Shown here: positions 19,811 through 42,385 of the stretch, one piece after another
How the letters are laid out: each line of letters starts with the position of its first letter
Numbering within the stretch: the first letter of the stretch is position 1
Assembly (NCBI GenBank): GCA_010093705.1
Contig: MU006095.1
Span: forward strand, 868,001-932,000
Direction: 5' to 3'
Source of the DNA: Patellaria atrata CBS 101060
Lineage: Eukaryota
Length of the DNA: 64,000 bases
Notes under the pieces: model-generated
Told to the model about the DNA's origin: nothing
Database searches by the model: none
What the model saw: the letters and a program-made list of their open reading frames with translations, nothing else
Position numbers and translations under genes: made by a program

Positions 19811-20903
19811 ATAGCTGGGAGAGTCTGGCGTTGGTTAACTGGTGATGTCTCCGTGAGGTTTTTCGTCATTGCAAATTCAGTATATGTTTGAGCTTATGAA
19901 ACATCGGTTCCTTGAGATACACAATCAGCAATCCATGGTTAAAAAAGGTCAGTAAGACCTTGATAGGATCTAACAGGGAATCACTGATTTCCATGTAAAA
20001 ACGCCCTACATATCTCATTACTATCATGAAACCCCTTGGGTTATTTTGTTTGTTCTTAATTCGAGCCTTGAAGATTTGAACTCTGGACAACTCGGTTAAA
20101 GAATAGGCAAAGCTAAGGGGGCGTCCAGCGAACATCTGACCCCTACATCGATTCTAACTATTTTCGTACTGACCCCGCCCATCGTCCAGCCTCTTAAGGT
20201 CGCGTCCGTATATTTAATTGTATCTACCCTTAACAAAAGTATCAAATATCCTTCGCCAGAGCTTATAAACTGACTTTATCACTGATCCTTACGGCTTGAA
20301 GGAGCACAATTTGTGTGTCGCTGTTCTGTTACGCCCAGAAACTATACGAACGGTAGGAGAAATAAGATGATGCATTTAATGTACTGTGCTGTACAGTACT
20401 CGATTTGCGTGTATGAGATGCTCAGCCTTCACAGGATTCTCGGCCATGTCGGCTTGTGAGCGAGCGGGATAGCCTCGCGGATGGTTTTCTACTGTTAAAC
20501 CCTCTACCCTTCTCTTCCATTTCTTCATTAGTTTCCACTCTCTCGTGCGAACCTTTTGAATGCTTGCTGGACGTCATGTCTTCAAGTCCTGTTCTCGCTT
20601 CGTCAATGTATTAGATGCAGAATTCTCATCTGGACACATTGAATCGTTGTATCCCACCTAATCTTGCCCCAGTGTAGGGAATCTTTCTTCTCAGTGCAAT
20701 GCTACCTTCATATACAGTCGTCTCTTACTAGAAGTTCTGTACAGTTCATACAACCGCCGGACGACCACACACTGAGAATTCATGAAGGGCAGATCGAGCT
20801 TCTGTAGTTCGGAGTCGATCGCGATCTTTGCGTCTGCTTTTCACGAATCCGTCATTCACTCATACCAATCGTCGTTCTCCCTCCCCTTGTACGCAGTAAA
20901 ATC

Positions 20904-23900
20904 ATGTTTGGAGGAGGGCAGGCGGGTGTGAACAGGGCTTTGTCCGACGGTCAAAACTATACAGAGCATAACTATGAGCAAGAACTATTGCCGTTTTTCC
21001 CCCCGGGATCAGGAGAAGCAAATTTTGGAGGAACGAAGTTCGAGGACAATGATTTCTTTGAGATTACTCAGATACTCGCAAGGGGCGGTAGGCGCTCCTG
21101 GAGCCGTCTACCGCGAACCTATACTATTCTACGTGTTATCGGAGCCTTGGAATACTTTGATCAAATAATTCGGGATAAGTCCACGGATCTAGCTATTCCG
21201 TATACTAAAGACAATCTACCTAGTTGTTTGCCTCCCAACATGCGGGCCCAATTTTATTCCGCGCAGAACATTGTCTTGAGTGGAGTTCTTGAGCTTGAAC
21301 AAGGTTATGCTGGACACCACTGTCATATTTTGGACCGAGCCTCGCTACAGTTCATCACTAGAGCAAATCTTGCTCAGAATCGTGCCTCGGGTACCAGGGT
21401 AGAAAAGGTCTATAGTTCGTTAAGTGGTAGGACATTCGTCTTGAAAACGATTCGACGAAAAGGAAAGTTTTACATGGACCGAGAGACCTTAACCAACTTT
21501 GAAGCAGAACTCAATGCTGCCAAAAAGGTGAAGCATGATCACATTGCCGTTATCGCTGGCAGTTTCACCTCTCCAACCCAAGTCGGGATAGTCATAGCGA
21601 CTGTTGGCGATTGCGACCTTAGAACTTTCCTAGATGGCCAAATTGATGCTGACCGGAAATCACTACTACGGACGTGGTACGGTTGTCTAGCATCTGGATT
21701 ACTAGCCCTCCATGATGCTCAAATCCGTCATAAGGATATCAAGCCTGAGAATATACTGATCAAAAACTCCAAGGTATTTTATACCGACTTTGGCATAGCT
21801 CTGGATTGGTCCGAAAAAACCCGTGCCACCACCACTGGAAGACCTCTTCTCTTTTCCCCTCGATTTTGCTCACCTGAGGTCGCCAATTGGGACGGCCGGA
21901 ACGAGTCTTCGGACATTTGGTCTCTTGGGGCTGTATATCTGGAGATGGTGACAAGGTTACACAATATGTCTATATCAGAATTTCGACGATTTCTCGACAC
22001 CCATGGCGAACACACCTCATCACAGTACTGCAGAAACGTTCCTGGTTTGCGGATGTGGATCTCGGAGCTTCAGGCTCGTGATTCCAGTTCCGAAAATAAC
22101 CTACCGCTACCATGGATCTCGGAATGTTTTAAGGATCGAGAGGCTCCCCGGCCAACAGCTCGTAAGCTTTGGGAAATGATTGACGAGGATACTTATTCAA
22201 GTAAATTTTCCTATGCTTGTGAACAATGTCATAAAACGCATGAATCATCCGATAGTGACACGTCTTCCGAAATGGAGCAAACCTCGTCTGAATATCCTGC
22301 ACAGGCTTCCCAGGCTTCGATAAAATCGGTACCCTTCCCTACTCCTACCGGAGTGGTACAGTTACTCGATAGGAATAGAACTAGCGAGGAACTCCTCAAC
22401 ACAAGTGGTTTCCCATTGTTACAACATGCTGTCCAGGCAGAAGATTCTACCTCACTTTCAGATACAACGGCTGTGGAGGAAATGGCATTTCAAGATAGCA
22501 GCTCACAGCCAGCGGGATTAATTACCGAAGCTATCTCGAGACTTGACTCAAGGAAACAGAATGCGGATATCGTTGGATCAATAAACAAACCTTCCGCTCC
22601 AGGGCTACATGTTCTTAAGCATGGAGGGATCGCAGATGACGAGGGCTATATTACTGGGTACGTTACCAAAGGTGATTTAAGGAGTCTTCAAGGTCTCGCC
22701 GTTACGCAGGATGGTCACATCCTTGACAAGCGTGGTAGAATTACAGGGTATGCTAATCTACTAGACGGAGCAGTAAAGGAGGGGGAAAACATGTTTAAGG
22801 GCATATTCAAATTCCCTAACGCAGGGTTTCTAGCACTTCGCGTCGGTGAGGAAGGCGAGATAAGAAGTGAAGATGGTATAATCGTTGGTATAGTCGTCAT
22901 TGGAAACCTTACATATCTTACCGGTCTCTCTGTTGATGAGGACGGTCAAATTATTGACAACTACGGACATGTTAAGGGTCAGGCTAAGCCCTTAACATCC
23001 AGGAGGACAAGAAGGCGTTATCCAACATTGACATCCTCCACGGCCGAAACCGTAGGGAATGAGCGTATTAGTGAACGTAATCGTTCTTTGCCTAATTATA
23101 AGGATAGTACAAAAGATGATTCGTGGTATGCAAATCAAAAGGGCGAGAGGGCACTCTTTCCGAGTAATCATGTCGGAAATGCTAAGACTCTTGCACGGAA
23201 GATAGGTCTTCCGGTGGAAGCACAACAAGCAATTAATGATAACACACAAGGAACCCAAAAAGGCGCTGAAGAAGCTACCGAAAACCGTTTAAGACAAAAG
23301 AAAGAGACGAAACGTCAAACCGAAGCAAGACAACTTGCGGGACGAAGTCGACGAAAGGAAGAGGCAGGAATTCGTCGACGAGAGAAAATACAGGAAAGAA
23401 GAGACCAACGTCGATGGCGAGAGGAAGAAGAAGAAGCAAGAGTCCGAGCTGAAGAAGGCAAAATAGCTGAACCTCGCCATAAAGACGAAGAAGACGCTCA
23501 ACATGTTAAAAGAGAACATATTGTGAAAGAGAATGCGGAGATGCCCCCAGGAAAGCGGCATGCTCAGGACCGAAACGGCAAAAGCCGCGCCGAGTCATTT
23601 AAGGAAGAAGTGGATGCACGAGAGAATTCGTCTGTTCTTGCAGACTCTACCGGACATTCCGCTGCTATTGTACAAAACACCGAACATGACGTGCCATTGC
23701 TCTCCGAAATTACAGATAAGATTGGAAGGCCGACTTTGGTACCATCTTGGACTGATACTAGAAAACTACCGAAAGACCACATGGAAGTCAGTGACACCAT
23801 ATATTTGAAAGTCGAAAACATTGAATACGAAGCTACGAAGGAAAATTTCAAAATCCTTTTCGAAGCATTTCCCTGTAGTGTCGCAGCCTGGTTAGGGAAT

Positions 23901-25031
23901 ACTTCTGGCTTTGTTCAAGTTCTTTATTTCAAGGAGATAGAGTCTTTTATCCGTTACTTCAACGTATTCAAGTTTATATGGAAAAAAGTTATCATGTACG
24001 GAACAGCAGATAGTGAGATCGAGGCCCTCGACCCTGAAGGTTGGTTTCAAATTGATGTCCATGACCCAGTTAGTCCTTGGGATGAACGCCGACATAACTC
24101 TATTTTGAAGGGGTATCCGGAGTATCTGGAAAACGAAGTCTTTCCGAAATTTCGAATCGTAAACACCAATTCTGGTGACGGGTTTAAACGGGAGATTGAA
24201 TCTGGATCTCCTCAGTCTTCCAAACCTCCTAAACCTAAACCTTCGCCAAACTCCCCGGCAGACAATAATACATATACTAGGCCGTCTTGGCAAGATAGAT
24301 TCAACTCGTTGTTTTCCAGAAAAGACCGGCCGCCACATATTTCGACCAAATCAGATGTTACGCCGAAAGGTTCTGATACCACCTCGAAAGTATCAGATCA
24401 TGAATATCGCCAGCCGCAGAGCTTTCTCCATGACGGTTCCTCAGCACGTTCACAGCCTCCTTTAATAGCCTCTGGGCATAGTAGGGCTTCAACGACGGTT
24501 TCTCAACCCATATCGACTTTGGATATAAGATTTGCAGGTGGAAGAAATTATAAAGACGATGAGGAATGGGCAAAAGCTAACCATTTAGGCGATATGTTAG
24601 ATATGCGTAGATATGATAACAATCTATCAGAGCAGCGGAAATATGAGATTCGTAAATATTATCTCGACTTAATATCAAAAGTGCGTAAAGAAATAGAGGA
24701 CCAATTACTCCTAAAAGCTAGAGCGGAGAGCGCCCAACCTAAGAGCTTGTTGGATACCGAGAACTCGTTTGAGACCAAAAAACGTCAGACGTCGATGATA
24801 GAAAGGGGGACCCAATCAAGCGACTTGTCTAATGAAATTAGCGTGGGGATAACGAATGAGTGGGATAGCTATGTATTATATCGTCACCAAAATGAGGAAG
24901 ACAAGTTACCCAAGAGGCACTTGGTCAAACACCCAAGACCTGTGGTATCACATTCAGATGCCAGAACTAGGAGGATTAGAGAAACCGAACCGGAGAGGAT
25001 GAGGTCCCCCCATTCGACGCGATGGACCTGA
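20904..25031 (+). CDS. Intronless Ser/Thr protein kinase-domain protein (1375 aa) with a composite C-terminal extension
   Basis: FVLK, alphaC Glu (NFEAE), IRHKDIKPENILI, TDFG, CSPE and SDIWSLG; Gly-rich loop degenerate. Followed by DUF3659-like repeats, an SH3-like fragment and a charged tract. Confidence 0.88.
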   Translation: MFGGGQAGVNRALSDGQNYTEHNYEQELLPFFPPGSGEANFGGTKFEDNDFFEITQILARGGRRSWSRLPRTYTILRVIGALEYFDQIIRDKSTDLAIPYTKDNLPSCLPPNMRAQFYSAQNIVLSGVLELEQGYAGHHCHILDRASLQFITRANLAQNRASGTRVEKVYSSLSGRTFVLKTIRRKGKFYMDRETLTNFEAELNAAKKVKHDHIAVIAGSFTSPTQVGIVIATVGDCDLRTFLDGQIDADRKSLLRTWYGCLASGLLALHDAQIRHKDIKPENILIKNSKVFYTDFGIALDWSEKTRATTTGRPLLFSPRFCSPEVANWDGRNESSDIWSLGAVYLEMVTRLHNMSISEFRRFLDTHGEHTSSQYCRNVPGLRMWISELQARDSSSENNLPLPWISECFKDREAPRPTARKLWEMIDEDTYSSKFSYACEQCHKTHESSDSDTSSEMEQTSSEYPAQASQASIKSVPFPTPTGVVQLLDRNRTSEELLNTSGFPLLQHAVQAEDSTSLSDTTAVEEMAFQDSSSQPAGLITEAISRLDSRKQNADIVGSINKPSAPGLHVLKHGGIADDEGYITGYVTKGDLRSLQGLAVTQDGHILDKRGRITGYANLLDGAVKEGENMFKGIFKFPNAGFLALRVGEEGEIRSEDGIIVGIVVIGNLTYLTGLSVDEDGQIIDNYGHVKGQAKPLTSRRTRRRYPTLTSSTAETVGNERISERNRSLPNYKDSTKDDSWYANQKGERALFPSNHVGNAKTLARKIGLPVEAQQAINDNTQGTQKGAEEATENRLRQKKETKRQTEARQLAGRSRRKEEAGIRRREKIQERRDQRRWREEEEEARVRAEEGKIAEPRHKDEEDAQHVKREHIVKENAEMPPGKRHAQDRNGKSRAESFKEEVDARENSSVLADSTGHSAAIVQNTEHDVPLLSEITDKIGRPTLVPSWTDTRKLPKDHMEVSDTIYLKVENIEYEATKENFKILFEAFPCSVAAWLGNTSGFVQVLYFKEIESFIRYFNVFKFIWKKVIMYGTADSEIEALDPEGWFQIDVHDPVSPWDERRHNSILKGYPEYLENEVFPKFRIVNTNSGDGFKREIESGSPQSSKPPKPKPSPNSPADNNTYTRPSWQDRFNSLFSRKDRPPHISTKSDVTPKGSDTTSKVSDHEYRQPQSFLHDGSSARSQPPLIASGHSRASTTVSQPISTLDIRFAGGRNYKDDEEWAKANHLGDMLDMRRYDNNLSEQRKYEIRKYYLDLISKVRKEIEDQLLLKARAESAQPKSLLDTENSFETKKRQTSMIERGTQSSDLSNEISVGITNEWDSYVLYRHQNEEDKLPKRHLVKHPRPVVSHSDARTRRIRETEPERMRSPHSTRWT

Positions 25032-27404: not shown

Positions 27405-28955
27405 ATGGCGATGTCCCAAGCTGCCTACGCGGCCGAAAAGGCCATTGGCCACGATGATAACGCTGTCACCTCTCAAGATATCACGAATCCAGCCCTCGAT
27501 CGAGAAAGGTATGGCGATTCAAGCGTGAAGATGAAGGCGTTGGCTTGGATGGGAAAGAACACGGTCAAAGTTGGTTCGTGATCCAGCCTCCAAAACCCTT
27601 CCCATGAAACGAAAAGAATAGCTAATACAGTCCATACAGTCGAGTGTCCAAAACCAAAGGTCGTAGAGGAAAAAGACGTCATATTGAAAGTGACGGGAAG
27701 TACAGTGTGCGGAAGTGATCTACATTTACTACACGGCAAGCTACACTTCCCTGGCATACAAAATCGCGGCATTAACATGTCTCCCCAGGCGTCGTTGTCC
27801 AACTCCAAAAAGGCGACATCCTCGGCCACGAATTCTGCGGCGTAGTCGACGACGTCGGCTCCGGCGTGACGAACGTCAAAAAGGGCGACCGAGTTGTAGC
27901 ATCTTTCCAAATCGCATGCGGCAACTGCTACTTCTGTAAGCAAAAGCTCTCCTCACAGTGCGAGAAGACCAATTCCAACACGATCGAAAATGCAATGTAC
28001 GGCGGCCGCACCGCTGGCATGTTCGGCTACTCCCACTTCACGGGCGGCTTTGCGGGGGGACAAGCCGAATACGTCCGTGTGCCGTACGGCGATGTCAATC
28101 TGCTCAAGTTGCCCGATGACGTACCGGACGAGAAGGGGCTGTATCTCTCGGACGTGCTGGCGACGAGCTGGAACGCCGTTGTCGACACAGGTGTGAACGA
28201 AGGCGACGTCGTGGCCATCTGGGGCGCGGGCCCGATCGGTCAGATGTGCGTCGATTTCGCCTTCGTCCAGGGCGCCAAGCGCGTCATCGTTATCGACTCG
28301 AACTGGCGCCTCGACTACATCAAAGAGAAGTACCCGAAAGCCGAGACGCTCGACTACAGCAAACTACCCCGAGGCGAGAGCGTGACGAGCAAGTTGAAGG
28401 AGATGGTAGATGGGAGGGGCCCGGATGTGGCGATCGAGTGCGTGGCGGGCGAGTATGCGAAGGGCTGGGCGCATTATTTCGAGATCCTGTTGGGTTTTGA
28501 GACGGATACGAGTGAGATTGTTAATGAGATGATTACGAGCGTGAGGAATTTTGGACGGTGTGGTATCACAGGTGTGTATGTTGGATTTGTAAGTCCCCTA
28601 TACTTCATACCTCATCCCTATCCACCCCCTAAAACGCAAATACCCAAACAACAACAAAACTAACAATAAAATCTAGACCAACCACTTCAACATCGGCTCC
28701 CTGATGGAGCGCGGCATCCGCCTCATCGGCAACGGTCAGGCCCCCGTTCACCTCTACTGGGAAAATCTCCTCAAGATGATCCAGGAGGGCAAGATCGACC
28801 CGCTCAAGATGGTCTCTCATCGCGTCCGCATCGACGATTTGGAGAAGGTGTACGAGAAGTTCGAGAAGAAGGAGGATGGGATGCAGAAGGTGTATGTCGA
28901 GACGAAGTTTTCGGCGCCGCCGTGTACCGGGAGTCCGGGGTTGACGACTTATTAG
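27405..28955 (+). CDS. Zinc-dependent medium-chain dehydrogenase (glutathione-dependent formaldehyde dehydrogenase-like / YbdR-like), 3 introns
   Basis: CGSDLH, LGHEFCG, structural Zn CGNCYFC...C, GYSHFTGGFAGGQAEYVRVP and Rossmann GAGPIG. Confidence 0.92.
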
Positions 28956-30011
28956 AGGAAAGGGGTGGGGGCGGGGGGGTTCAGGGTGTGAGTTGAGCGG
29001 TATGAGTGATGAGTGATGATGGGAGCATGTTGATGGTGTTGAGGTGGTGTGAGTTGAGCTTTTGACAATAAGTCATTGTGGGTAAATTCGTATAGTAATG
29101 TACATGTTGAACGAAACTTAGGAAACGGTTATCGATATTCTTCATCAACATCAAGCGACCATCTCGTGGATGGCAATATACCTCCAATTGTGCATGCTGA
29201 CATAAAAGGTACCTTAAGGGTATGTTATTAAATCGTGACAATCAGTTCAATCAATCCTCAAGACCACGCTGCGCTCCCTACCTGAACACACGCACCGACA
29301 AACCTAATCCAAAATTCACCTCACTACAATACCTTATCAAGTATCCAAGAAGTGCAAAAGCCTCGCGTACCTTCCCTTCTACAAAAGGATCCAGTTCCAC
29401 AGTACTGCCGGTAGCTCTTTCCCATTCCATTCCATTCCCGACTCACACCATCCCTTCCGCACATCCGACCGACGCACCCCGCACAGAAGCAACCTCAAAC
29501 CTAAAGATACCCTTAAAGATTAATAAAGTACCTTGTTGTATTACCATTTTTTTTTAAAAAAAAAAAAGAATTCTGAACCCTGATGTCATGGTTCGAGGGT
29601 GAAACGGTACCTGTATCAAAACCTGCAACAGCATGCGCCCTGCATCCCAAGGTGCGGGAGCCTCATCTCATCACGGTTCCAGGATGAAAATACGACAAGG
29701 GCCGATTTTAAAAATGTGGTGTTCATTACTGCTATGAATGGGTGCTATGTAATGCACTGTTTATGCAAAGTGGCTCATGCTTGACGATAGATGGTTGATG
29801 AGATGGTAGTGGAGGGATATATCGTAACATGAAAAAAAACGCCAAACGCTATGCTGAACACAAAAACTGACTGCACGTCCAATCATAGTATGTCGTATCT
29901 ACATGATTGATGAGTTGGAGCGTCGTCAAAGACCCAAAGTGGCTAAATACTGAAATACAACTGAAAAATCTTGATTCAAAAATCGCTGGCGTCAGGATCG
30001 AGGTGACTGTC

Positions 30012-30600
30012 TTAGACCTTCCCGGCTCCTCTGCTACTTCCTCTCTTGGGTAGTGTCCAAGGTTCGGCACAGACGACCTATAACTAAAATGTCAGCAACT
30101 CCGAAATTCGACCGGGTTTGCAGTGGGTAGGATTGATACGCACCTCTCCCTCGCTGTAAGCCCAGAAATAGACGACCATGCCGACGACGTAGTAGATGGC
30201 CGGGTTGGTGCTCTGGTACATGAGCGCCGCGGCGAGGGCGAAGACGGGGAATATGATCAGCCGGGCTTCGATGGAGCGGTGGATCATGCTCCCGGCGACG
30301 AACTTGAGCGGCCACTCGTAGGCGAGGCCGATGATGCCGAAGAGGAGGTTCATGGTTTGTAGCACCGGGATCGGCTTGACGGCGCCGTCGAGGTTCTTGG
30401 TCAGGAAGTCCCAGAAGACTTTGGGCCAGAAGAACCCTTCGAGTGCGGCGGCGATTTGATCTGTAGTTGATTAGAGGAGTGGTGGGGGGGGGGGGGAGGG
30501 GGGGGAGGGGGAGATGTAGGATGGTAGAGCAGTGGGACTTACAGGTTGCGGCAGTAAGCACAATGAGACGTGCCCAGTGGTTCTTGATGAGTTTGCCCAT
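30012..30600 (-). CDS. noxD: NoxD / Pro41 / HAM-6, fungal p22phox-like NADPH oxidase subunit; exons 30600-30543, 30460-30144, 30077-30012
   Basis: Spliced product MGKLIKNHWARLIVLTAATYQIAAALEGFFWPKVFWDFLTKNLDGAVKPIPVLQ...EWPL...IHRSIEARL...YFWAYSEGEVVCAEPWTLPKR matches the Pro41/HAM-6 sequence pattern as I recall it. Confidence 0.9.
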
Positions 30601-31055
30601 TTTTGCGATATATGTACGTTCTTTTTTATTTTACTTCTATCTCCGAGCTTCTTGGTGGATACAGTGAGGGTAATTGGGGTCGGGATTTGAGTGAATGGAA
30701 TGACCGCCGGCGGACAGGTATTATTACAAGAGTAAAGACGATGAAAAGACCTAGAGATTGGAGAAGCTGTGAAGATTGGCTACCGCGCTGCGAGCTGGTC
30801 TCTAGAAAGAATCATGTCCACTCGGCGCCGGGTCGTCGTCCTTATATCGCGCCTGATGGCAGGCTGAGGCGGAGTGGAGATTGATGTCAATGCCTGGGAT
30901 ATCTCATACAATGGTGAATCTGGAGATCGGAGGTTGAGAATAGGTTTGAATCGCGGATGAGGAGGGTCTTGGGTTTGAGAAGTATATGATGAGACGAACG
31001 GCACGGGTAGGAGTGTCAAGAGATGGAAGTGTTCATTATGCGAAAAGCTATCGGT

Positions 31056-31082
31056 AGAGTGGCAGAGTGGCAGAGTGGCAGT
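31056..31082. repeat. Short tandem repeat (AGAGTGGC)x3
   Basis: Directly visible in the noxD-noxA intergenic region. Confidence 0.8.
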
Positions 31083-34000
31083 ATACCTATCTTGGGCAGC
31101 GGGGGGGTACGGTATGGGGCCTGGGGTACCTGGGAAGCATGAATGGCAGAATGCAGGAACAGGGATTCAGATTAAGCGCTCAGTGTGTTAGCGAACCTAT
31201 CCGACGTTCAGGAGTCGCAGAGTGCACCGAGCTTTGTGCGTGACCCCAAGTTGAAATCCCTAATTCTTTACCATCCCGTACACGCCGTGAGCACAGTGCG
31301 GATTTCCTGCAGCATCAAGGGCAAATAATCGTCTTCCCGCTTCCTTCCCTTGGTCCCTTTTTTTAGGCTTGTCTTGGGTTAGCCGCTAAGGGTCCTTGGG
31401 GTCCCTCCCTTGTTACACCTATCGCTGCTGTGATACACATCAGACTCTTCCTATAGACCCTTTCTTGACATTTTTTGTCACATCAGAAGTCATGAGCTCA
31501 AGTCACCGGCTGCGAACTGTTGAGAGATCTTGACTCTTGACGTCTGAAGGGATGAGAGAAAGAGAGGTCTGGGGAAGAGACGGTAACAGCCGAACTGCAG
31601 CGGCGTAAAGAAGCTTCGCCTTATCCCATCTGAGGAATATCGATAGGGATTGAGGTTTTTGGGAGACTACTGTGTAAGGAAGTCACTTGTAGATGTATCG
31701 CGTGGGTCTCTCATCACATACTAACTAAATATCACATCATGGTGATTCGAAGAACTTGTTTTTCGTCTACCGACTCTACCGAGTTATCCTACCACAAGCA
31801 GAGGCATTTGCCGACAATTCCTTGAGCTACCAAGCTGGATTTATTTTTCAATCACAAAATATCTGATTTCAAAAGAGATGATTTGTTGATTGCAACCAAT
31901 AGTACTATCGTTGGACAAGAAATTGGCATTGTCAATATCAAGAATCTCTTCTGTAATCCGGACCCAGATCTAAGGAGATAACTGTTCCTCGTTAGAGCTG
32001 CCCAGATTCTTATTCATTATTAGTCATTATTATTCTTCATCCCTTCAGTTGAATCATGCTTCATCAATCAAGACCAACTTTACTTTAAGAGGATCGCAAA
32101 TCAAATGCTGAGAGGCTGCGTATGGCAATAGCGTCAATTTTATCGATGGCGCTCCAGCACGTCTAGGTACCTGTATATAATTTCACAGTGGCCTGACAGT
32201 CAGCAAGATGTGCTTTTACTAGTCTTCGAGCAGCATCCTACTTCATGCACGGTGATTCGAAGCATCGTGAAAAGGGACATGATTTTATAACAGTATCCAG
32301 AACTGGGACCCAAGTCGCCCCGTTTTCCTAGATTGTATCCCGGTATAACATTTGCTTCCATTCACGGCGAAAGAAGTTCGAAAAGACTTCTACAATCTTA
32401 GGTGATACGAGTCGGAACGTGACCAGATACTTTGTTCTTTTGAGATCAACGACATTTCTTGTTGGTCGGCCTTTTCTTTTCGACCCAAGCCAAGATCCTC
32501 TACAGCGCGTAAATTGAGAAAAAGATTGGTTAGGTGATTGGGATACAGACTCGCTAAGGTACGAATGGCTGTCGATTTGCTCCGCTCCAGCCATCCAAGA
32601 TCCTCCGCCTTCACATACGCCCCAAAATGCCAAAAATGGTATGGCAGGATCTATTTTGAGGATTTTTCACTACCGATAGATGTGCTAAGGACGGGTATCA
32701 CGAGTTTGCACGATAGCAGGCGGGGCGAACAAAGACCTTTGTCGAGACCGAGGAGGTGATAAAGCTCCTAGCGGTGCATCGACGGGGCAGGATTATACCG
32801 TAGTCTTTGCTGCATCTGAGACCCGAAGCAGATGCTCTCGAAAAAGTCGAAGAGGATCCCTGACTAGCATCGCGGCGGCAAGGGGAAGGCAAAGGCAAGG
32901 GACCAAGGCGGTGAATCTCCATTGTCATACCTGATCGACACTTCGAAGGTGTTCGCAGGTAAGTGGACAGTTGGGACGGGTACTGTACTGCTGTACTGTA
33001 GAATAGTTTCTGCGACTTGAACTTCAGTTCGCACATCTCAAAAAACATCAAGTTCAGAGTTGACCCACCGGCGACCTACATTATATCATTGTGTATGAAA
33101 TAATCCCCCTTAGGCCATTCGCGACTTAAACGTTTCGTATCTGTTTCCACCGGTTTCGCCTATTCATAGTCCTCCCAACAAGGAGACATCCATCCTCTCC
33201 GCAATCCCTCGAAGACCATATCGCAGCACCGCCGCTCTCCAGATAGAGTAGAAGTTTCCGAATTAGAGGAGGCAGTAGAAATTGATAGGTTATTGAGGAG
33301 GAGTTTCGACTTTCGCCAGAGCGTCTATCGAGGGAGCTTGGTGTTGTAAAAACATAAAGTACGAAGCCACCTCCGCAAACTCGCTGTTGTCAAAGTCGCA
33401 TCAACGTCGCGCATCGAGGAATACATCATAAAGACTGTTTCAACAGAGTAAAAGATCAGCAATTATAATACGGATAATAATTATTGAGGCGTTTATTCTT
33501 CTACTGCGGGCTCCTCAAAGTTTAAAGCTTCAAACGCTCATCTCTCTCCCAAGGGTTCGCTTCTACATGATGGTACTCAGGAGGTCGTTACACATCTGAA
33601 ACGCTCCCTCGACAACCAGCATTGCGATACACCGAATTCCTCTCCCTACACCAAAACCGACTTAGACCTTTCGGAATCCAAGGCTTCCTGTCTTCAACCA
33701 AACGCATAAGCTCCGCGCCCTTGTAAATACTCCTAAATATTCCCTCGGTCGACCCCCGATCCATAGCACCTAAGCCGGAACGGGCAGTATAATCAAGTTT
33801 GATCTCCGGATTGAAGCTTAAGGTTAGTTTCATCGTCTCCAGATCTTGCAGATCTTGCTTCAAAGAACTCCTCGCTCACACTTTATATCATCAGCATCAG
33901 ACCACTTTGTTCCTCTTAACACTTGGTCATCCCTGGGAAAAAGCTTGAGCCTTTGGTAGTCGACCATAGTACCGCCTCTCTTTTGTCTTCCTCTCCTGGC

Positions 34001-34199
34001 AGGCCGGTGACTCCATTCTATCATTACATTCTCTGCCGGTGCTGGGTCACTGATTTACGACTTTTACATTCTTTAATACTACCACGATCTTTTTTCGAAA
34101 GACATTCCTTCTCACCGATACGACGTAGCCACGGTTGGGATAATCTGGGCGTATATAGGACTCGCAGAATCTCGAGTTAAAGAGCAGTAGTAATAGACC

Positions 34200-36020
34200 A
34201 TGGGAGGAAGGGGTTTAGCAGGCCATTTCACTGGCAGCAAAATTCTCTTCTACGTCCTCTTTCATGGCTTTCACTGGGGACTTTTCGCATTTGGCTGGTA
34301 AGGGGACTATCATCAAAATTGGAACCACATAATCGGACTCTAACAGTTGCGCGCATAGGTATAAGCAAGCAGCCGATGAGAGACTAGCAATTCTTAATGG
34401 ATTAAGATTTTCCGTCTGGTTTTCTCGTGGTGCTGGTCTCGTTCTCAGTGTCGATGTTCTCCTCATTCTCCTGCCTATGTGCAGAACGATAATCCGTGTA
34501 ATACGGCCCAAGATTCGATGGTTACCACTTGACGAGACTCAATGGTTCCATCGACAAGTCGCTTATTCTATGCTATGGTGGACAATTGTACACACATCCA
34601 GTCATTATGTCAAGTACGTATTTTCGCCCTAGAGTTTGCGAATCAAGAAGACTAACCGAACCAGCTTCTTCAATGTAGAACTATTCCAAGCCCGTCCAGA
34701 ACTAGCGGTTCAAATCCATTATACCCAACCAGGTGGCATCACCGGTCATATTATGCTCCTATGCATGCTTCTCATGTACACCACTGCTCATCACAGGATA
34801 CGACAGCAATCTTTCGAAACCTTTTGGTATACCCATCATCTATTCATCCCCTTCTTGCTCGGAATGTACACGCATGCCGTCGGTTGCTTCGTCCGAGATT
34901 CCGAGACTACCTCCCCTTACTCCCCCTTCGCCGGTGAACTCTTCTGGAAGCACTGTATCGGATACCAAGGCTGGCGTTGGGAACTTTTCGGTGGAGGGTT
35001 CTACCTCATCGAGCGCCTCTACCGTGAAGTCCGCGCACGCCGCGAGACAGAAATCGTCAAGGTCGTCCGTCATCCATACGGTAAGTTTCCTACCCCCTAA
35101 ACTATCACGTGACCGAACACTAACCCAACCTCCCAGATGCCGTCGAAATCCAATTCCGCAAACCATCAATGAAATACAAAGCCGGCCAATGGCTCTTCCT
35201 CAACGTTCCATCAGTCAGCAAACAGCAATGGCACCCCTTCACCATCACCTCCTGCCCCTACGACCCGTACATCTCCGTGCACGTCCGCCAAGTCGGCGAC
35301 TTCACGCGCTCCCTCGCCGACGCCCTCGGCGCCGGGCCCACGCAAGCCAAACTCTACGACGAACTCGACCCGATGGGCATGTACGAAGTGGCTCTCCAAC
35401 ACGGACAGAAAATGCCCGCCCTCCGCATCGACGGCCCCTACGGCGCCCCCGCCGAAGACGTCTTCGAGAACGAAATCGCGGTCCTCATCGGCACCGGCAT
35501 CGGCGTTACCCCCTGGGCCGCCATCCTCAAGAACATCTGGCACATGCGGCTCTCGCCGAACCCGCCGAAGCGCCTCCGTCGCGTCGAGTTCATCTGGGTC
35601 TGCAAGGACACCTCCTCGTTCGAGTGGTTCCAGGCGCTGCTCTCCAGCCTCGAGACCCAGTCGCAGGGTCAGGGCCCCGACGGCCAGGATTTCCTCCGCA
35701 TACACACGTACCTCACGCAAAAGGTTGACGTCAACACCGCTAACAACATCGTGCTCAATTCCGTGGGGACCGATAAGGATCCCCTCACGGAATTGAAGTC
35801 GCGGACGAATTTTGGACGGCCGGATTTCAATCGCGTGTTGACGACTATGCGCGACGGCATTATCGATCGCACGTATATGAGCGGATTGGAGAGTAGTCTC
35901 AGGACGGAGGTGGGCGTGTATTTTTGCGGACCGAGTTTAGCGGCGAGGGATATCAAGAAGGCTTGTAAGACGAGTACGTGTCAGGAGGTTAAGTTTAAGT
36001 TTTGGAAGGAGCATTTTTGA
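34200..36020 (+). CDS. noxA: NADPH oxidase catalytic subunit NoxA/Nox1 (gp91phox homologue), 3 introns
   Basis: Short N-terminus (no NoxB-type extension), SRGAG, WFHRQVAY..VH..SHY and FWYTHHLF..H heme histidines, FAD motif QWHPFTITS, IDGPYGAP, GTGIGVTP, VYFCGP and C-terminal FWKEHF. Confidence 0.95.
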
Positions 36021-36046
36021 GCTCTTCCTTTGCTTTTGGCTTTTCT

Positions 36047-36078
<32 letters not shown>

Positions 36079-36086
36079 TGTGTGTG
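36047..36086. repeat. Compound microsatellite (TC)7(TG)13 just 3' of noxA
   Basis: Directly visible. Confidence 0.9.
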
Positions 36087-36481
36087 TATGCATAGAGCGG
36101 GATTGAGGGTTTTCAGACAAACAAATCGAGATGAGGGAACTTTGTATGTAGGATAATTGGGTCTTTTTTCGTTTCTCTGTGACGGGTTGGGTTGCATCAG
36201 GAGTGTCTATATCAAGTCATAGCGTCGTGTGCTAGGTCACAGTTTGATTTTATCAAAGAAAGATGAGAGGGATGTGTTAGGGATTTGAAAGTGTTTAGTT
36301 ATATATCATGGGCAATGGAAACTTTTAGTCATAATGAAGGTGGAGCTATATATGAGATATAATAAGTTACTTCGATCGAGATCATCAGGACTCCATGTTA
36401 ATCCACCAACCGTGATATCCCGAGTAAAAGAGGGAAATCGTAGACTCCCATGTCCTCCTGCTCCATGATTTGTTACGTCTC

Positions 36482-39400
36482 TCAAACGACCTATATAATA
36501 TCGTTAGTAACAAATTCTAGGACGTAGAGGGTAAAAGACCAAACTCACCTCCGCAATAGACTGCCTCTCGATAATACTCTTCTGCCTCTCATTCCTACTA
36601 ACACGATAATAAGTATCGCTGAAATCTGCACACTGCATATGTCTCAAAAACTCCTCATCATGCGTAATAACAATAAGCTGAAAATTGCTCTGCTGCCTCC
36701 TGACCCTGATAATCTCCGCCAAGCTCTCCGCGAGCGCCTTAATATTGTCCCTGTCGAGGTTGGTGGTCGGCTCGTCGAGAGCGATGAGGCCGCAATTGAC
36801 GCCGAAGCACTCGGCAAGCGCAAGACGGATGATGATGGAGGCGAGAACTTTCTGCCCTGCCGAACACCGTCCCCGCATGTCCATCTCGGCGTCCTGTTTC
36901 ACCATGCAGACGCGGTAGTTGTAGGATTTGTTGCCCTTGACGTTTTCGTTGTCGGAGCGGATGATGATGGTATCGACGTCGGTACCCTGATATGTCTTCT
37001 TCCACAACTCCTCGATGATACGGTTGATTTCCTCCATTTTGAGACCGTGGTATCTCATAATTGCTTTGTCTAAGGCGCCGCCGTAGCGGCCGAGATCCTC
37101 GACGACGGCTTTGGTGGTTTCGACTTTGATGTGTGCTTCTCTGTACTTGTAGGCTGCATCTTGGTAGTCTGTTTCCCAGTCCTTGAGCAGACCGGCGAGT
37201 TGGTCATCTTTGGATTTGAGCGTGCCGACGGTACTTGCTTGCTCTGCGCTGAGTTTGTTCCGTTCGTTTTGCCACCTGTTTCCCTCCCTCTCGTAGCGTT
37301 CTTTATCCGCATAAGCGTTGTGTGATTCGAGCTCCTCTATCTCTCCCCTCACACTTTGCAGATTGCGGGCACCGGCACGATATCGTAGATTATCTGAAAT
37401 CTGCCGCTTCATATCTGCGGTATTGCGGAGAGTATCATCGATCTTCTTGATCTCGGCGATAACATGACGCTGCTTATCTTCTCTCTTGATCACTTCCTCT
37501 TCCAGATGTTTGATTTCCATTTCCGCATGATGAAGCTGGCTGTCACCTCCACGGCCTAAGTAACTGTTAACTTCTTGATCGGCCAATCGCAGCTGGTTCA
37601 GGCTGTCTGAGATCTTGGATGCATCTTGATTCAGCTCTCGTTGCCGATCGTTCCCGCGTTTTTCGATATCGTCATATTTTGCTTGAGCTTGAGATATCTG
37701 CGGAGCTAACGCTTGAATATCTTGATCAGCTTGCCGAATGTCTTCTCGTTGCTCTGTATTGAACGACTTTAACTCTTCCATCTGAGACATGAAGTTGGAC
37801 TTTTCCTTGAGCTTAAATATAGCTGTACTGAGCTTTGTCCTCATCTGGTTTACTTCTGCCTCCAGTTGATGAACCTGACTACGTCCACGGTCCCTCTCAT
37901 TCAGAAGCTGTGTGGTTCTTGCCTTCAACTCCCGTAATTGCTCGTTAAGTTTCTTCGAATCATTTTGGATGTCTTCGAGCCCTCTAGAGAGTCCAGTGTC
38001 TTGTCGCTTCTTAGATAGTTCCTGGATTTGTGTCTGGAGTTGATGAAGCTCAGTATGATATCTGAGAATGCTCTGAACCGTTTTTGACAGTGCTTCAATC
38101 TCTCTCTTTGCCGCTTCCTTCTCTTTGACCACTTGATCATGCTCCTCGGCTTTTCGCAAGAGATCCTCTCGCCGAGACTCGTCGTTACGACATTCCTTTT
38201 CTAGTTTCGGGATATCTTCCTCCTTGAGACGTAACCAGGTAACGTACGAAGGATTTGCTTCTCTTGCCTTGGTTAACCGTTCCTGGAAAGACTCAAGCTC
38301 ACCTTCTGGAACCTGTCTCTCAGGGCTTGATATCAGCTTCTCTAGCCGTCGAATGAAATGGGTCTTCTCCGTTTCTCCCTGGAAATGCCTCTGGCATAGC
38401 TCACAGCGGGGTTCCACTGGTTTACCCTTAACGGGTCCTCCTTTTGCTATCTTTAGATACTGTTTAAAGAACTCCTTTTCTGCGCCAAAGCCAACAGTAT
38501 CCCGTTTCACAGCGTCGAGATCCTCTTCAAACATGGCCACATCTTCTGGGTAATTGGCAGCATCTTCGTCCTCCATTACTTCCAAAATCCGTCGTTCATG
38601 TTCTTTAAGCTCCTGCTTCCTTTTCTTTAGTTCGTTTGAAGTGGATTTGATTTTGAAATTGATATGCTCAATCTCACGGTTAACTCCGTCGCGCTGGGCC
38701 TCAGATTCTTTCACTTCTCCAGACCTTTGATCTGATGCTGACTGGAAGTCTCGCTCTAAGGAGCTTAGATTCAAGTCTACACCGAGTTCCGTGGTGATTT
38801 TGGGACCGTGTGCGCCGATCATAGTATCCAGCTTCTGTTGACGATCCTTTTGCTCTTTCTGAAGAAAGTCCAATCGTGCAGTGTCACCCGCCTGGCGAGT
38901 ACCCTCGATGAGCTCAGCATCTAACCTTTCCTTTTGATCCTCAAGGGTACGTTGTTGAGAGTCCGCATCGGTGATCTTCGTATCCAAATTCGCCGCTTGA
39001 AGGTCTACCTTTGCTTTGTCAAGACGTTTCTCAACATCGTTGATACTAGACTCGAGCACAGCTTTTCCTCCTTCGTCAATATCAACCTTATCGAGTTGTG
39101 ACTGGATAGACATCATCTTCCGATCATTGGTACCGATTTGGCTCCTACTGTTTTCTTTCTTTTGTTGAAGTGCAGACTTTCGTTCATTGAACTGGTTAAG
39201 AACCTTCTGAGCTTGCTGCAGTGCTTCTTGCGTCTCCCTGCGTGCGCGTTCGAGAGCGTTGTTCTGATCGCGAGCCATCTTGCTAACTCGCTCTATGAAC
39301 TCACGAACTTCGGCATCGCCGACTTCGAGATCGTAACCGCGAATTCCGTGACGCCGAGCCGTCTCTTTCACCAAAATCTCCCGTTGCTGGACCTGACGCT

Positions 39401-40475
39401 CAAATTGGGCCTTTTCTGCTCGGAATCTTCCAACTTCACTCTGCTTGACACCAATTTCCCGTCGGGTCTGGTCAATGTCCTCCTTGATTTTTGAGTACTC
39501 TCTTCTCATCTCCTCAGCCTCGTCCTGATAATGTGAGACTCGTTCTTCATATTGGTCAAGTATCTTCTGGAGCTGCTCATCCGTGTCGGTCATCTCCTTA
39601 ATGTGATGTTTAAGCTCATCCACATTACGTGCCAGAGTCTGTTCCTCTATGCGTTTGCCTTCTAGTCGAGAGACGATCTTAGTGAACCCATCTGCATGTG
39701 CCCAAGCTTCATTGGCTTTCTGTTTCGCTTCCTCCAGGCGCTCTGCTATTTTATCGTTGTGAGCCCTGAGTTCTTCAATCTCGGCATACAGTTCATTCGA
39801 TTTCTTCTCTGCCCTGTCACCTCTATCCTTGTCCTCCTTAGCATGCTGTTCGATGATTTTGAATTTCGCTAGCTCCTCGTTCTGTTTCTTTTTGAGAACT
39901 TTGATGTTGTCTATAGCTTTGGTGTATTTTAAAGCTTCGAAGATCTCATCGAACTTCTTTTTCAATACGCCTGGTTCACTCAATGGCCATAAACTTTCAT
40001 CCTGGTGGCAAAAGATGACATTCTCGAGAATAGACTTGGAGACGCCCAAGTACTGTGGCATAATTTGATCTAGTTCAGCAACTCGGGATGATATGGCAGT
40101 GCGCTCTCCATCTTTGATCATCAACAATTGACCTTCCAGAGCCTTCTGTGCCCGGGTGGTCTTCTTTACAGTGACCTGAAGACTTCTTGTAGCAACCATT
40201 TTGGCGCCAGAGGTCGCTTTGAATGAGAGTTTTACCTGTGCGAGTACTTCTTTTTCTCCACATAGTTTAGGATCGTGAATAAAAGCACCGCCTCGTGCGC
40301 TATTAGGTGGTAATTCTCCTGTCGTGGCATATTTGAGACATTCAATGATTGTCGTTTTCCCCGACCCATTGAGGCCGACGATGAGTGTAAGTGGAGCATA
40401 GAATTGAATAGTCTCGCTCCTTTGATTGTCGAAAGAACGAACACCCAATATAGACAACTTATCGATTTTGGACAT
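36482..40475 (-). CDS. RAD50: DNA repair protein Rad50
   Basis: Start MSKIDKLSILGVRSF at 40475. Walker A GLNGSGKTT, FCHQDES, long coiled coil, Zn-hook CELC, signature CSAGQK and Walker B IALDEPTTNLD. Terminal intron 36491-36548 leaves a 9-nt last exon (V-V-stop). Confidence 0.97.
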
Positions 40476-40915
40476 CTTGAGTCCTCGAAATAGAAGGTGT
40501 AAGTCGCTGAAAAGTTGATGGAAGTTTCTCTGACTGAAAAGAAAAGTGAGAAGGAAAAGGAAGAAAGATATGGCGGGCGAAATGAAGATGAAGTTGAGAT
40601 GGGATAGAGCTGTTGCCTCACGCGAGGCTGAAAGTGGGCTGCAGCGCGAACAGATCACGTCCGTCACGTGCTGTCAGAAAGGTGATTAAAACCAATTGGG
40701 AAGGACCGAGGTCGGCTTATTATGCATTATTCTCCGCTTCTTACAAGTTGTGAATACCGATTTACTATTTCTATCACGATCGTACAATCCCTTCTAGTTC
40801 CATCCATGATTTCTGGAAGGACTTCGTTACCTTAGTCTCATATGCGCGCCGTGGCCCTTTTCATGCACGATCCGCCTGCTACTAACCGTCTTTTCCCTGA
40901 TCCGACGAACCGAAC

Positions 40916-42385
40916 ATGTCGTACGGAATTGATACCAGCGCTATAACAGTATGATTTATGGCTAAACTATAACCATCAATATCTGCTAACATCCGAAAGA
41001 TGGCAGGTCTTCCGGCCACGGGTGATCTGCAGCCTCCGATTCTGGACGGGAGCTTAAATGACCTTGGTACTCTTGATATGGACATCGACTTCTCCCAAGC
41101 TGAAGATCCCCTCTCACAACCATATCCTTCAGACATGTCGAAACAAATGTTACAGCAACCAAGCCCTGCTGGCTCTAACGATACATCCTCCGTCTCCCAG
41201 AAAAATTCCGGTATTGGCGCCGGTCCTTTACCTACCGGCTTTGGTATGCCCAGTGCCAACAATTTGGGGAGCACCTTGACAGAGTTCACAAAAAGGAGGA
41301 ACTGGTCTCAGCGCGTATTAGAAGAAATTCGTGATCTTTTGCACATTCTCACCCCTGGTGGTCAAATCCTCTACGTCTCCCCGGCATGTAAGCAGCTAAC
41401 AGGCTATGAACCGCAAGCATTGGTGGGTCAGTATATTAAGGATTACATACATCCGGAGGACCTAGGGCTTTATGTTCGGGAATTCAACGAGTCCATCGCC
41501 ACTGGTAATCCAATGCGTTTTTTCCACCGTTTCAAAAAACCAGATGGGAACTATACTATATTTGAATCGCATGGGCACCCACACTACAGTGGGGATATTC
41601 CTCGTTTCCCGCATGACAATGGGCTAAATATAAACCCAGTGTTACACGCATGTCAAGGCTTCTTCATGATGTCGCGACCGTTTCCGACCAAAAGCGCAAC
41701 GCTTCTCGATTCGTTCCTCGAACACAAGACGGAGAACATGCGCCTTCTGAAAAAGATAGCTGATCTGAAGCGCGAAGAGCAAGAAGAACAAGAAGAAGAT
41801 AACCAGACGCATTTTCAGGACAGGAGCAGTCTTCGAGACGGTATCACACCGGATACCAGAGGCTCAGTCAGCCCCAACTACGACGGCATGCCTCCTCCAG
41901 CCAAACCGGGAATATCGAACACCGCTTTAACGCGTCAGAACCTCGACGAAGCACTCGCAGCGAGCCAGCCGGACTCTATAAATGACAAAATGGCGAGATA
42001 CGAGGGCGCAACACATATTGAAACCATTGAGATGCTCACTGGTCTTCGCTATAGAGATGGTGAGCGGTCGATGGGTATATCTACAGGCGATACAAGTCCA
42101 AACTTGATAAGAGGTGATGCTGGTATTGCAATATTTGTAGACAAAGATGGTAGAAGAGAAGGCGACAAGAAGAAAAAACTCAAGGTATCGGATGAATACG
42201 TATGCACAGACTGCGGGACACTCGATTCCCCTGAGTGGAGGAAGGGCCCGAATGGTCCTAAAACTCTGTGCAATGCCTGCGGACTTCGATGGGCAAAACG
42301 AGAGAAGAAAAGACAAGGGGTTCACGGGTCAGCCTCAGGATTAGTTCCTTCAAAGCTTCAACATTCTAATTCCAATGGCAGTTAA
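40916..42385 (+). CDS. wc-2: White collar-2 (PAS plus GATA zinc finger) light-response transcription factor
   Basis: [22 protein letters not shown] domain, LLDSFLEHK, and [30 protein letters not shown]. Probable 33-nt first exon 40916-40948 with intron 40949-40999. Confidence 0.93.

Follow-up and report, generated by a model that had tools for sequence, protein, structure and literature searches.

The locus described here raises the question of why the genes for two membrane subunits of one fungal enzyme, the flavocytochrome built on NADPH (reduced nicotinamide adenine dinucleotide phosphate) oxidase A (NoxA), should lie side by side and head-to-head. The DNA analysed (the window) is a stretch of 64,000 nucleotides from Patellaria atrata CBS 101060 (Dothideomycetes, Patellariales), positions 868,001 to 932,000 of contig MU006095.1. 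It carries noxD on the minus strand and noxA on the plus strand as divergent immediate neighbours, with a gap of 3,599 bp between their start codons (ATGs). The reading towards which we lean, by a modest degree, is that the two subunit genes are in an old linkage that has been retained for the sake of shared upstream elements or a shared chromatin domain. Both strands were read and the exons were spliced from the window sequence, which gave the following models (CDS, coding sequence).

30012..30600, minus strand: noxD CDS, PRO41/HAM-6/p22phox-like; three exons, 146 residues, spliced model
30600-30543, minus strand: noxD exon 1
30542-30461, minus strand: noxD intron 1, 82 nt
30460-30144, minus strand: noxD exon 2
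30143-30078, minus strand: noxD intron 2, 66 nt
30077-30012, minus strand: noxD exon 3, stop codon included
34200..36020, plus strand: noxA CDS, gp91phox-type NADPH oxidase A/Nox1; four exons, 550 residues, spliced model
34200-34297, 34359-34613, 34665-35080 and 35137-36020, plus strand: the four noxA exons, stop codon included in the last

The original prediction, made from the sequence alone, had placed the start of noxD at 30600 (-) and that of noxA at 34200 (+), and both positions are exact to the base in the spliced models. The reading frame is intact in both spliced CDSs. All five introns run from GT to AG, measure 51-82 nt and hold a CTAAC/CTGAC-like branch site near the 3' end. The deposited P. 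atrata NoxD and NoxA proteins both lie on one contig of 1,490,246 bp.

The identity of noxD is given by its second exon, which alone matches the Pfam family PF24853 (DUF7727) with an E-value of 9.5e-40 and 136.7 bits (cut-off 27), over profile positions 21-139 of 139. The same exon is 73-80% identical to proteins named 'PRO41 protein' (Coccidioides immitis, Aulographum) and 'putative pro41' (Phaeomoniella), which bears out the earlier naming of the gene as p22phox-like Pro41/HAM-6. That noxD would be split over three exons and easily missed was also correct; exon 3 is absent from the deposited P. atrata protein. This protein (P0004, 144 residues) is 100% identical to the spliced model over residues 1-125, past which it runs into intron 2 and ends in VRINPTHCKPGRISELLTF, a wrong C-terminus of 19 residues. 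Splicing to exon 3 yields the tail VVCAEPWTLPKRGSSRGAGKV, in agreement with the family consensus VVCxxPWTLPxR; of the 115 NoxD matches that bear the anchor motif (120 matches in all), 64 end in a PW[TS] tail. FgNoxD has 146 residues and two introns, the same size and intron number as P. atrata NoxD (PMC8928025). Judged from the sequence, the three-exon model is preferable to the deposited protein, which needs correction because it retains intron 2. NoxD orthologues are located in the membrane of the endoplasmic reticulum and are needed for hyphal fusion and fruiting-body development (PMC5542705, PMC5633613, PMC5611593). As to composition, the G+C content at third codon positions (GC3) is 0.90 in noxD exon 2, and intron 1 contains at 30484-30513 a run of 28-30 nt that is G-rich on the plus strand and C-rich on the noxD strand.

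Exons 3-4 of noxA match the Pfam families Ferric_reduct (PF01794), FAD_binding_8 (PF08022) and NAD_binding_6 (PF08030). The spliced product is 100% identical to the P. atrata protein annotated as 'NADPH oxidase' (P0124), whose precomputed domain list contains only those three domains and no EF-hands. Among 34 aligned NoxA sequences the histidine pairs H97/H111 (14 residues apart) and H175/H188 (13 apart) are invariant, as are HPFT at 289-292, the G-x-G-I-G-x-T-P stretch at 375-382 (G375, G377-I-G379, T381-P382) and CGP at 520-522. By analogy with NOX2, we take the histidine pairs to hold the two haems, HPFT to bind flavin adenine dinucleotide (FAD), and GxGIGxTP and CGP to bind NADPH. The domain set, the cofactor motifs and the matches to NADPH oxidases uphold the gp91phox-like identity first proposed for the gene. 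Exon 4 is 82-85% identical to proteins named 'NADPH oxidase A' or 'subunit A'; the assignment to NoxA and not NoxB is provisional and goes by these match names. The nox-1 open reading frame (ORF) of Neurospora crassa measures 1659 bp (PMC6702951), and P. atrata NoxA has 550 residues. The NoxA protein of Sclerophora amabilis (P0262) is annotated with 619 residues, compared with 550-556 in other NoxA proteins; its extra length may lie at the N-terminus, as an extension that gene prediction carried into the noxD-noxA spacer of this species. Base composition changes along noxA: exons 1-3 have a GC3 of 0.38-0.57 and a G+C content of about 0.44-0.51, and exon 4 has a GC3 of 0.78 with local G+C up to 0.665. 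A (TC)7.5 run followed by a (TG)13.5 microsatellite occupies 36047-36087, starting 27 bp past the noxA stop codon, in the 3' untranslated region (UTR).

That the two products are partners is established in other fungi, where NoxD binds Nox1/NoxA (PMC5542705, PMC5611593) and is required for the functions of NoxA/Nox1 (PMC5542705, PMC5611593, PMC9421330). The systems of Podospora, Botrytis, Magnaporthe, Neurospora and Sordaria consist of the same two proteins as in P. atrata. For the P. atrata pair, a predicted NoxA-NoxD complex scored 0.77, compared with 0.00 for the best of three controls. Among 78 solved complexes, 51 reach the mark used for this score, compared with 2 among 108 mismatched pairs; for eukaryotes, 71 of 105 solved and 2 of 126 unrelated pairs do so. 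At least 92% of the contacts agreed between runs, and the predicted local distance difference test (pLDDT) value of the partner was at least 85. The predicted interface joins NoxD residues 2-38 and 101-112 (helices 1 and 4) to NoxA residues 109-170; it presumably resembles that of the solved human NOX2-p22phox complex. The pass may reflect likeness to, or memory of, that complex and not independent evidence, because a like complex has already been solved. The prediction supports binding of NoxA to NoxD, without demonstrating it.

The likeness to human flavocytochrome b558 (NOX2/gp91phox with p22phox/CYBA) lies in the pairing of a catalytic six-helix NOX protein with a small four-helix partner. 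Modelled with AlphaFold2 (pLDDT 78.4, predicted template modelling score 0.70), NoxD has helices at residues 5-29, 32-39, 52-68, 78-98 and 101-122. Foldseek placed 8gz3_A, 7u8g_B and 8kei_A at ranks 1-3 for this model, with E-values of 2e-3 to 3e-2, template modelling scores of 0.58-0.69 and a probability of 1.00; all other matches had E-values of 0.58 or more. These are chains of 132-134 residues in human NOX2-p22phox entries, taken as p22phox from their size. Unlike the fold, the NoxD sequence has no detectable similarity to p22phox: a profile of 43 NoxD sequences found no match at E <= 10 among all chain sequences of the PDB, including 8gz3, 7u8g and 8kei, and NoxD is therefore not filed here as a member of the p22phox sequence family. 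NoxD is a structural and functional counterpart of p22phox and not a member at the level of sequence. The tail of NoxD, about 21 residues in length, contains PWTLP; it lacks the long proline-rich C-terminal tail of p22phox. The human genes for NOX2 and p22phox are on different chromosomes.

Adjacency of the two genes in other fungi was read from the locus tags and contig sizes of the homology-search matches, a proxy in which tags give neither orientation nor distance. Positional tags on both proteins are available for six species other than Patellaria. The NoxD and NoxA tags are consecutive in four of them, and each of these pairs lies on a contig or contigs equal in size.

Pycnora praestabilis (Candelariomycetes): M1827_001331/001332, consecutive
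Sarcosagium campestre (unplaced leotiomyceta lineage): M1825_001897/001898, consecutive
Sclerophora amabilis (Coniocybomycetes): M1837_000549/000548, consecutive
Loxospora ochrophaea (Lecanoromycetes): MMC20_005271/005272, consecutive
Stromatinia cepivora (Leotiomycetes): EAF04_000289 versus EAF04_003591, unlinked, the two contigs measuring 4.5 and 1.9 Mb
Pleopsidium flavum (Lecanoromycetes): two contigs (11.8 and 2.9 kb), fragmentation too strong for a judgement

Consecutive tags mean that no gene is annotated between noxD and noxA in those four genomes. In all six further Dothideomycetes (Lineolata, Aplosporella, Aulographum, Saccharata, Neofusicoccum and Lasiodiplodia), where tags are non-positional and the lineage was looked up for two, both proteins are on equal-sized contigs. 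The NoxD and NoxA contigs of a Coniosporium cluster are likewise equal in size, and those of Lachnellula occidentalis differ (47 kb and 5 kb). The original prediction had named absence of adjacency in related genera as the observation that would count against it; what was found instead is consecutive tags in four of six species and equal-sized contigs in six of six Dothideomycetes. Judged from the tags, recurrence in four of the six testable species, from four other lineages, is beyond chance.

The model fungi are unlike P. atrata in this respect. In Magnaporthe oryzae NOXD is MGG_09956 and NOX1 is MGG_00750 (PMC5542705, PMC10320130), and in N. crassa ham-6 is NCU02767 and nox-1 is NCU02110 (PMC5217103, PMC6702951); from these published numbers the genes are unlinked in both Sordariomycetes, as they are in Stromatinia, where they occupy different contigs. 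In Aspergillus, hamF is AFLA_033600 and AFLA_033610 is a DNA glycosylase; none of the searched papers mentions AFLA_033590, AN5456 or AN5458. FgNoxA is provisionally taken to be FGSG_00739. The linkage thus appears, as far as tags and contig sizes tell, to be kept in Dothideomycetes and several lichen-forming or allied classes and to be absent in Leotiomycetes and Sordariomycetes, the classes that served for all the genetics. It would then be ancestral to at least the Dothideomycetes and the lichen-forming classes.

The retained linkage that we favour would be maintained as follows. Common upstream regulatory elements, one chromatin domain in the long spacer, or both, would hold noxA and noxD together; the two mutually dependent subunits would be switched on jointly by developmental factors of the PRO1/ADV-1 and Ste12 types; and each gene would have a core promoter of its own, some 0.6 kb away from the ATG. 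We infer both selection for the linkage and any shared regulation. The placing of the promoters follows the composition of the spacer, in which three zones can be told apart.

30601..31200, minus strand: noxD-proximal zone upstream of the gene, rich in C on the sense strand of noxD; putatively the core promoter and 5' leader
31201..33500, no strand: central spacer, 2.3 kb, without strand skew (GC skew -0.009) and without a detected gene, RNA family or repeat
33501..34199, plus strand: noxA-proximal zone upstream of the gene, rich in C and in pyrimidines on the sense strand of noxA; putatively the core promoter and 5' leader

The noxD-proximal zone (600 bp) has a GC skew of +0.36 on the plus strand, and only 4.1% of 634 windows of 600 bp are as skewed. 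The noxA-proximal zone (699 bp) has a GC skew of -0.228 and 57% pyrimidines. The two zones are probably separate promoter-proximal or leader regions, which would share at most upstream elements or a chromatin domain. In the noxD-proximal zone, at 31056-31081, AGAGTGGC is repeated in a perfect tandem of 3.2 copies, which may be a repeated factor site or due to chance.

The original prediction had proposed a two-gene module on a shared promoter. The idea that the linkage is meaningful is supported by the adjacency in four of six species; the shared promoter is at most partly supported, in view of the 3.6 kb and the two skewed zones. Divergent pairs of partner genes are known from the fungal histone genes H3-H4 and H2A-H2B, from niiA-niaD and from GAL1-GAL10, whose shared control regions mostly measure less than about 1.5 kb. 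The noxD-noxA pair is like them in being head-to-head, in having cooperating products and in an adjacency that is kept over large distances. It is unlike them in that their control is compact and shared, whereas noxD-noxA has 3.6 kb, two proximal zones and a shared regulation that is only putative. The two other divergent ATG-to-ATG gaps of the window are short (498 bp between FRG1 and ADH, 524 bp between Rad50 and a White Collar-2 (WC-2)-like gene); noxD-noxA, with its 3,599 bp, has no short shared control region. Judging from length and composition, a compact bidirectional promoter is probably not what this pair has.

Motifs of the two types of developmental factor offer weak leads. The sequence TGAAACA, which we take to be of Ste12 type, occurs once in the spacer, at 33436-33442 (-), about 760 bp upstream of the noxA ATG. 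The sequence GCGCTTA, the motif obtained for N. crassa ADV-1 by chromatin immunoprecipitation (PMC5217103), also occurs once, at 31173-31179 (-), 573-579 bp upstream of the noxD ATG. Published work on other fungi points indirectly to joint control. Nox1 and Pro41 are both lowered in pro1 mutants of Pyricularia oryzae (PMC10320130), ham-6 is a direct target of ADV-1 (PMC5217103), and the stretch from -1120 to -643 of the NOXD promoter is bound by Mst12 (PMC5542705). NOXA, NOXD and NOXR of the Dothideomycete C. heterostrophus go up together in infection (PMC10775821).

Several observations weigh against a linkage kept for regulation. Two of the six tag-comparable species, Stromatinia and Pleopsidium, have non-consecutive tags. 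In Magnaporthe and Neurospora the genes are unlinked, yet functional and co-regulated; since co-regulation there proceeds via PRO1/ADV-1, linkage is not needed for it (PMC10320130, PMC5217103). A figure legend on Botrytis states that transcriptional regulation is apparently unimportant for NoxA function (PMC5611593). The spacer is about seven times longer than both other divergent gaps, and its strand skew suggests two separate promoter-proximal zones. Neither motif is enriched in the 64 kb: GCGCTTA occurs twice (4.5 expected) and TGAAACA seven times (10.8 expected). Finally, the count of retained pairs is a raw one, uncorrected for the background at which ordinary neighbours like noxA-rad50 are retained over equal distances.

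The main rival is neutral retention, in which the adjacency arose once, has not yet been broken in some lineages and has no regulatory role, each gene having an independent promoter. We regard this as a serious possibility, though not the probable one. It draws on the same 3.6 kb spacer with two separately skewed proximal zones, on the dispensability of the linkage in Leotiomycetes and Sordariomycetes, on the trans co-regulation by PRO1/ADV-1 in lineages without it (PMC10320130, PMC5217103) and on the uncontrolled retention count. What speaks against it is that five lineages of different classes share the adjacency, that so large a spacer is a wide target for rearrangement breakpoints, and that the products are obligate partners, which would be an unlikely coincidence if the pair had survived at random. 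Within the chromosomes of Dothideomycetes, gene order is heavily scrambled, and this too counts against a neutral relic.

A more far-reaching form of the retained linkage is put forward tentatively, as one that may well be wrong. The pair would be an ancient module of filamentous ascomycetes, under selection since before the split of the Dothideomycetes and the lichen-forming classes, because the long spacer, as a shared regulatory region or chromatin domain, would set the stoichiometry of the subunits. It would have been broken once, towards Leotiomycetes and Sordariomycetes, where trans control by PRO1/ADV-1, Ste12 and Tpc1 would have taken over.

A further alternative, which we consider improbable, is that the spacer holds an unannotated unit (a long non-coding RNA, a gene that is small or evolves fast, or long 5' UTRs with introns), in which case there would be no true sharing of a promoter. 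The roughly sevenfold excess in length over the nearby divergent gaps is in its favour. The contents of the spacer argue the other way. The 35 stop-to-stop ORFs of 50 residues or more in or overlapping the spacer are all without a Pfam match at E <= 0.01. A Rfam scan of 29000-37000 gave no match inside the spacer, although non-coding RNAs outside Rfam are invisible to it, and ARAGORN found no transfer RNA in the whole window. Scans for repeats and tandem repeats found no large repeats in the spacer, only short families at chance level. Codon-usage log-odds, for which ten Pfam-supported ORFs from the window served as training set, averaged -0.006 (maximum 0.125) over the 33 ORFs that lie wholly in the spacer and have 50 residues or more, with no convincing coding ORF; the score is a weak discriminator because the true noxA exon 2 scores -0.014, which leaves the hidden unit some room. 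The consecutive tags in four other species also stand against it. The spacer that had been described as 3.6 kb without a recognisable gene is thus 3,599 bp in which these scans detected no gene, RNA family or large repeat.

Two candidates were rejected in the course of these scans. The first is a SCARNA7 match at 35963-36125, past the noxA stop codon, with 17 bits against a cut-off of 65. The second is the locally best-scoring ORF of the spacer, 33591-33875 (-), of 95 residues. Among 1.84 billion representative proteins it had only two matches at E <= 0.001 (2.5e-7 and 9.2e-6), both to long RING-repeat and choline-binding-repeat proteins through many weak stretches of 20-26% identity, and these repeat-driven matches are spurious; no predicted P. 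atrata protein covers it.

Chance or an assembly artefact confined to P. atrata is effectively refuted, because four genomes assembled independently have the adjacency too; both proteins are on one contig in the public record, and the chance of two given genes adjoining is about 2 divided by the gene number (simple arithmetic, not from data).

The pair is flanked by two genes, each convergent with its neighbour.

ATG at 27405, plus strand: Zn-ADH-like gene, flanking noxD and convergent with it
36507-40475, minus strand: Rad50, flanking noxA and convergent with it

Elsewhere in the window, a gene with PAS and GATA zinc-finger domains (40973-42382), similar to light regulators of the White Collar-2 type, is divergent from Rad50 (-), with ATGs 524 bp apart (40475-41000). 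An ORF of 1407 residues at 20808-25028 encodes a protein kinase domain and two DUF3659 repeats. The segment 5952-7376 (G+C 0.587) holds overlapping ORFs on opposite strands, of 390 residues (+) and 329 residues (-), neither with a Pfam match.

The founding papers on NoxD contain, to our knowledge, no remark on linkage to noxA. Full-text searching, whose reach excluded those papers (Lacaze 2015, Siegmund 2015), returned no report of the adjacency in the accessible parts of the literature. What appears to be new is the conserved divergent linkage and the lack of it in the model lineages; the two genes and the partnership between them were known before. The linkage was apparently missed because functional work used species without it. 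The fungal counterpart of p22phox was found by forward genetics in 2015. If the pair is indeed an ancient module, that counterpart would have gone unrecognised for so long because the model species lacked the linkage; gene neighbourhood would have pointed straight to this elusive protein. In many fungi, hyphal fusion, fruiting bodies, sclerotia and plant infection all require NoxA and NoxD jointly, and the linkage of the two genes across classes provides a testable handle on how the amounts of the two subunits are matched. Lineages that keep the linkage and lineages without it, which rely on trans regulation, offer a natural contrast for this purpose.

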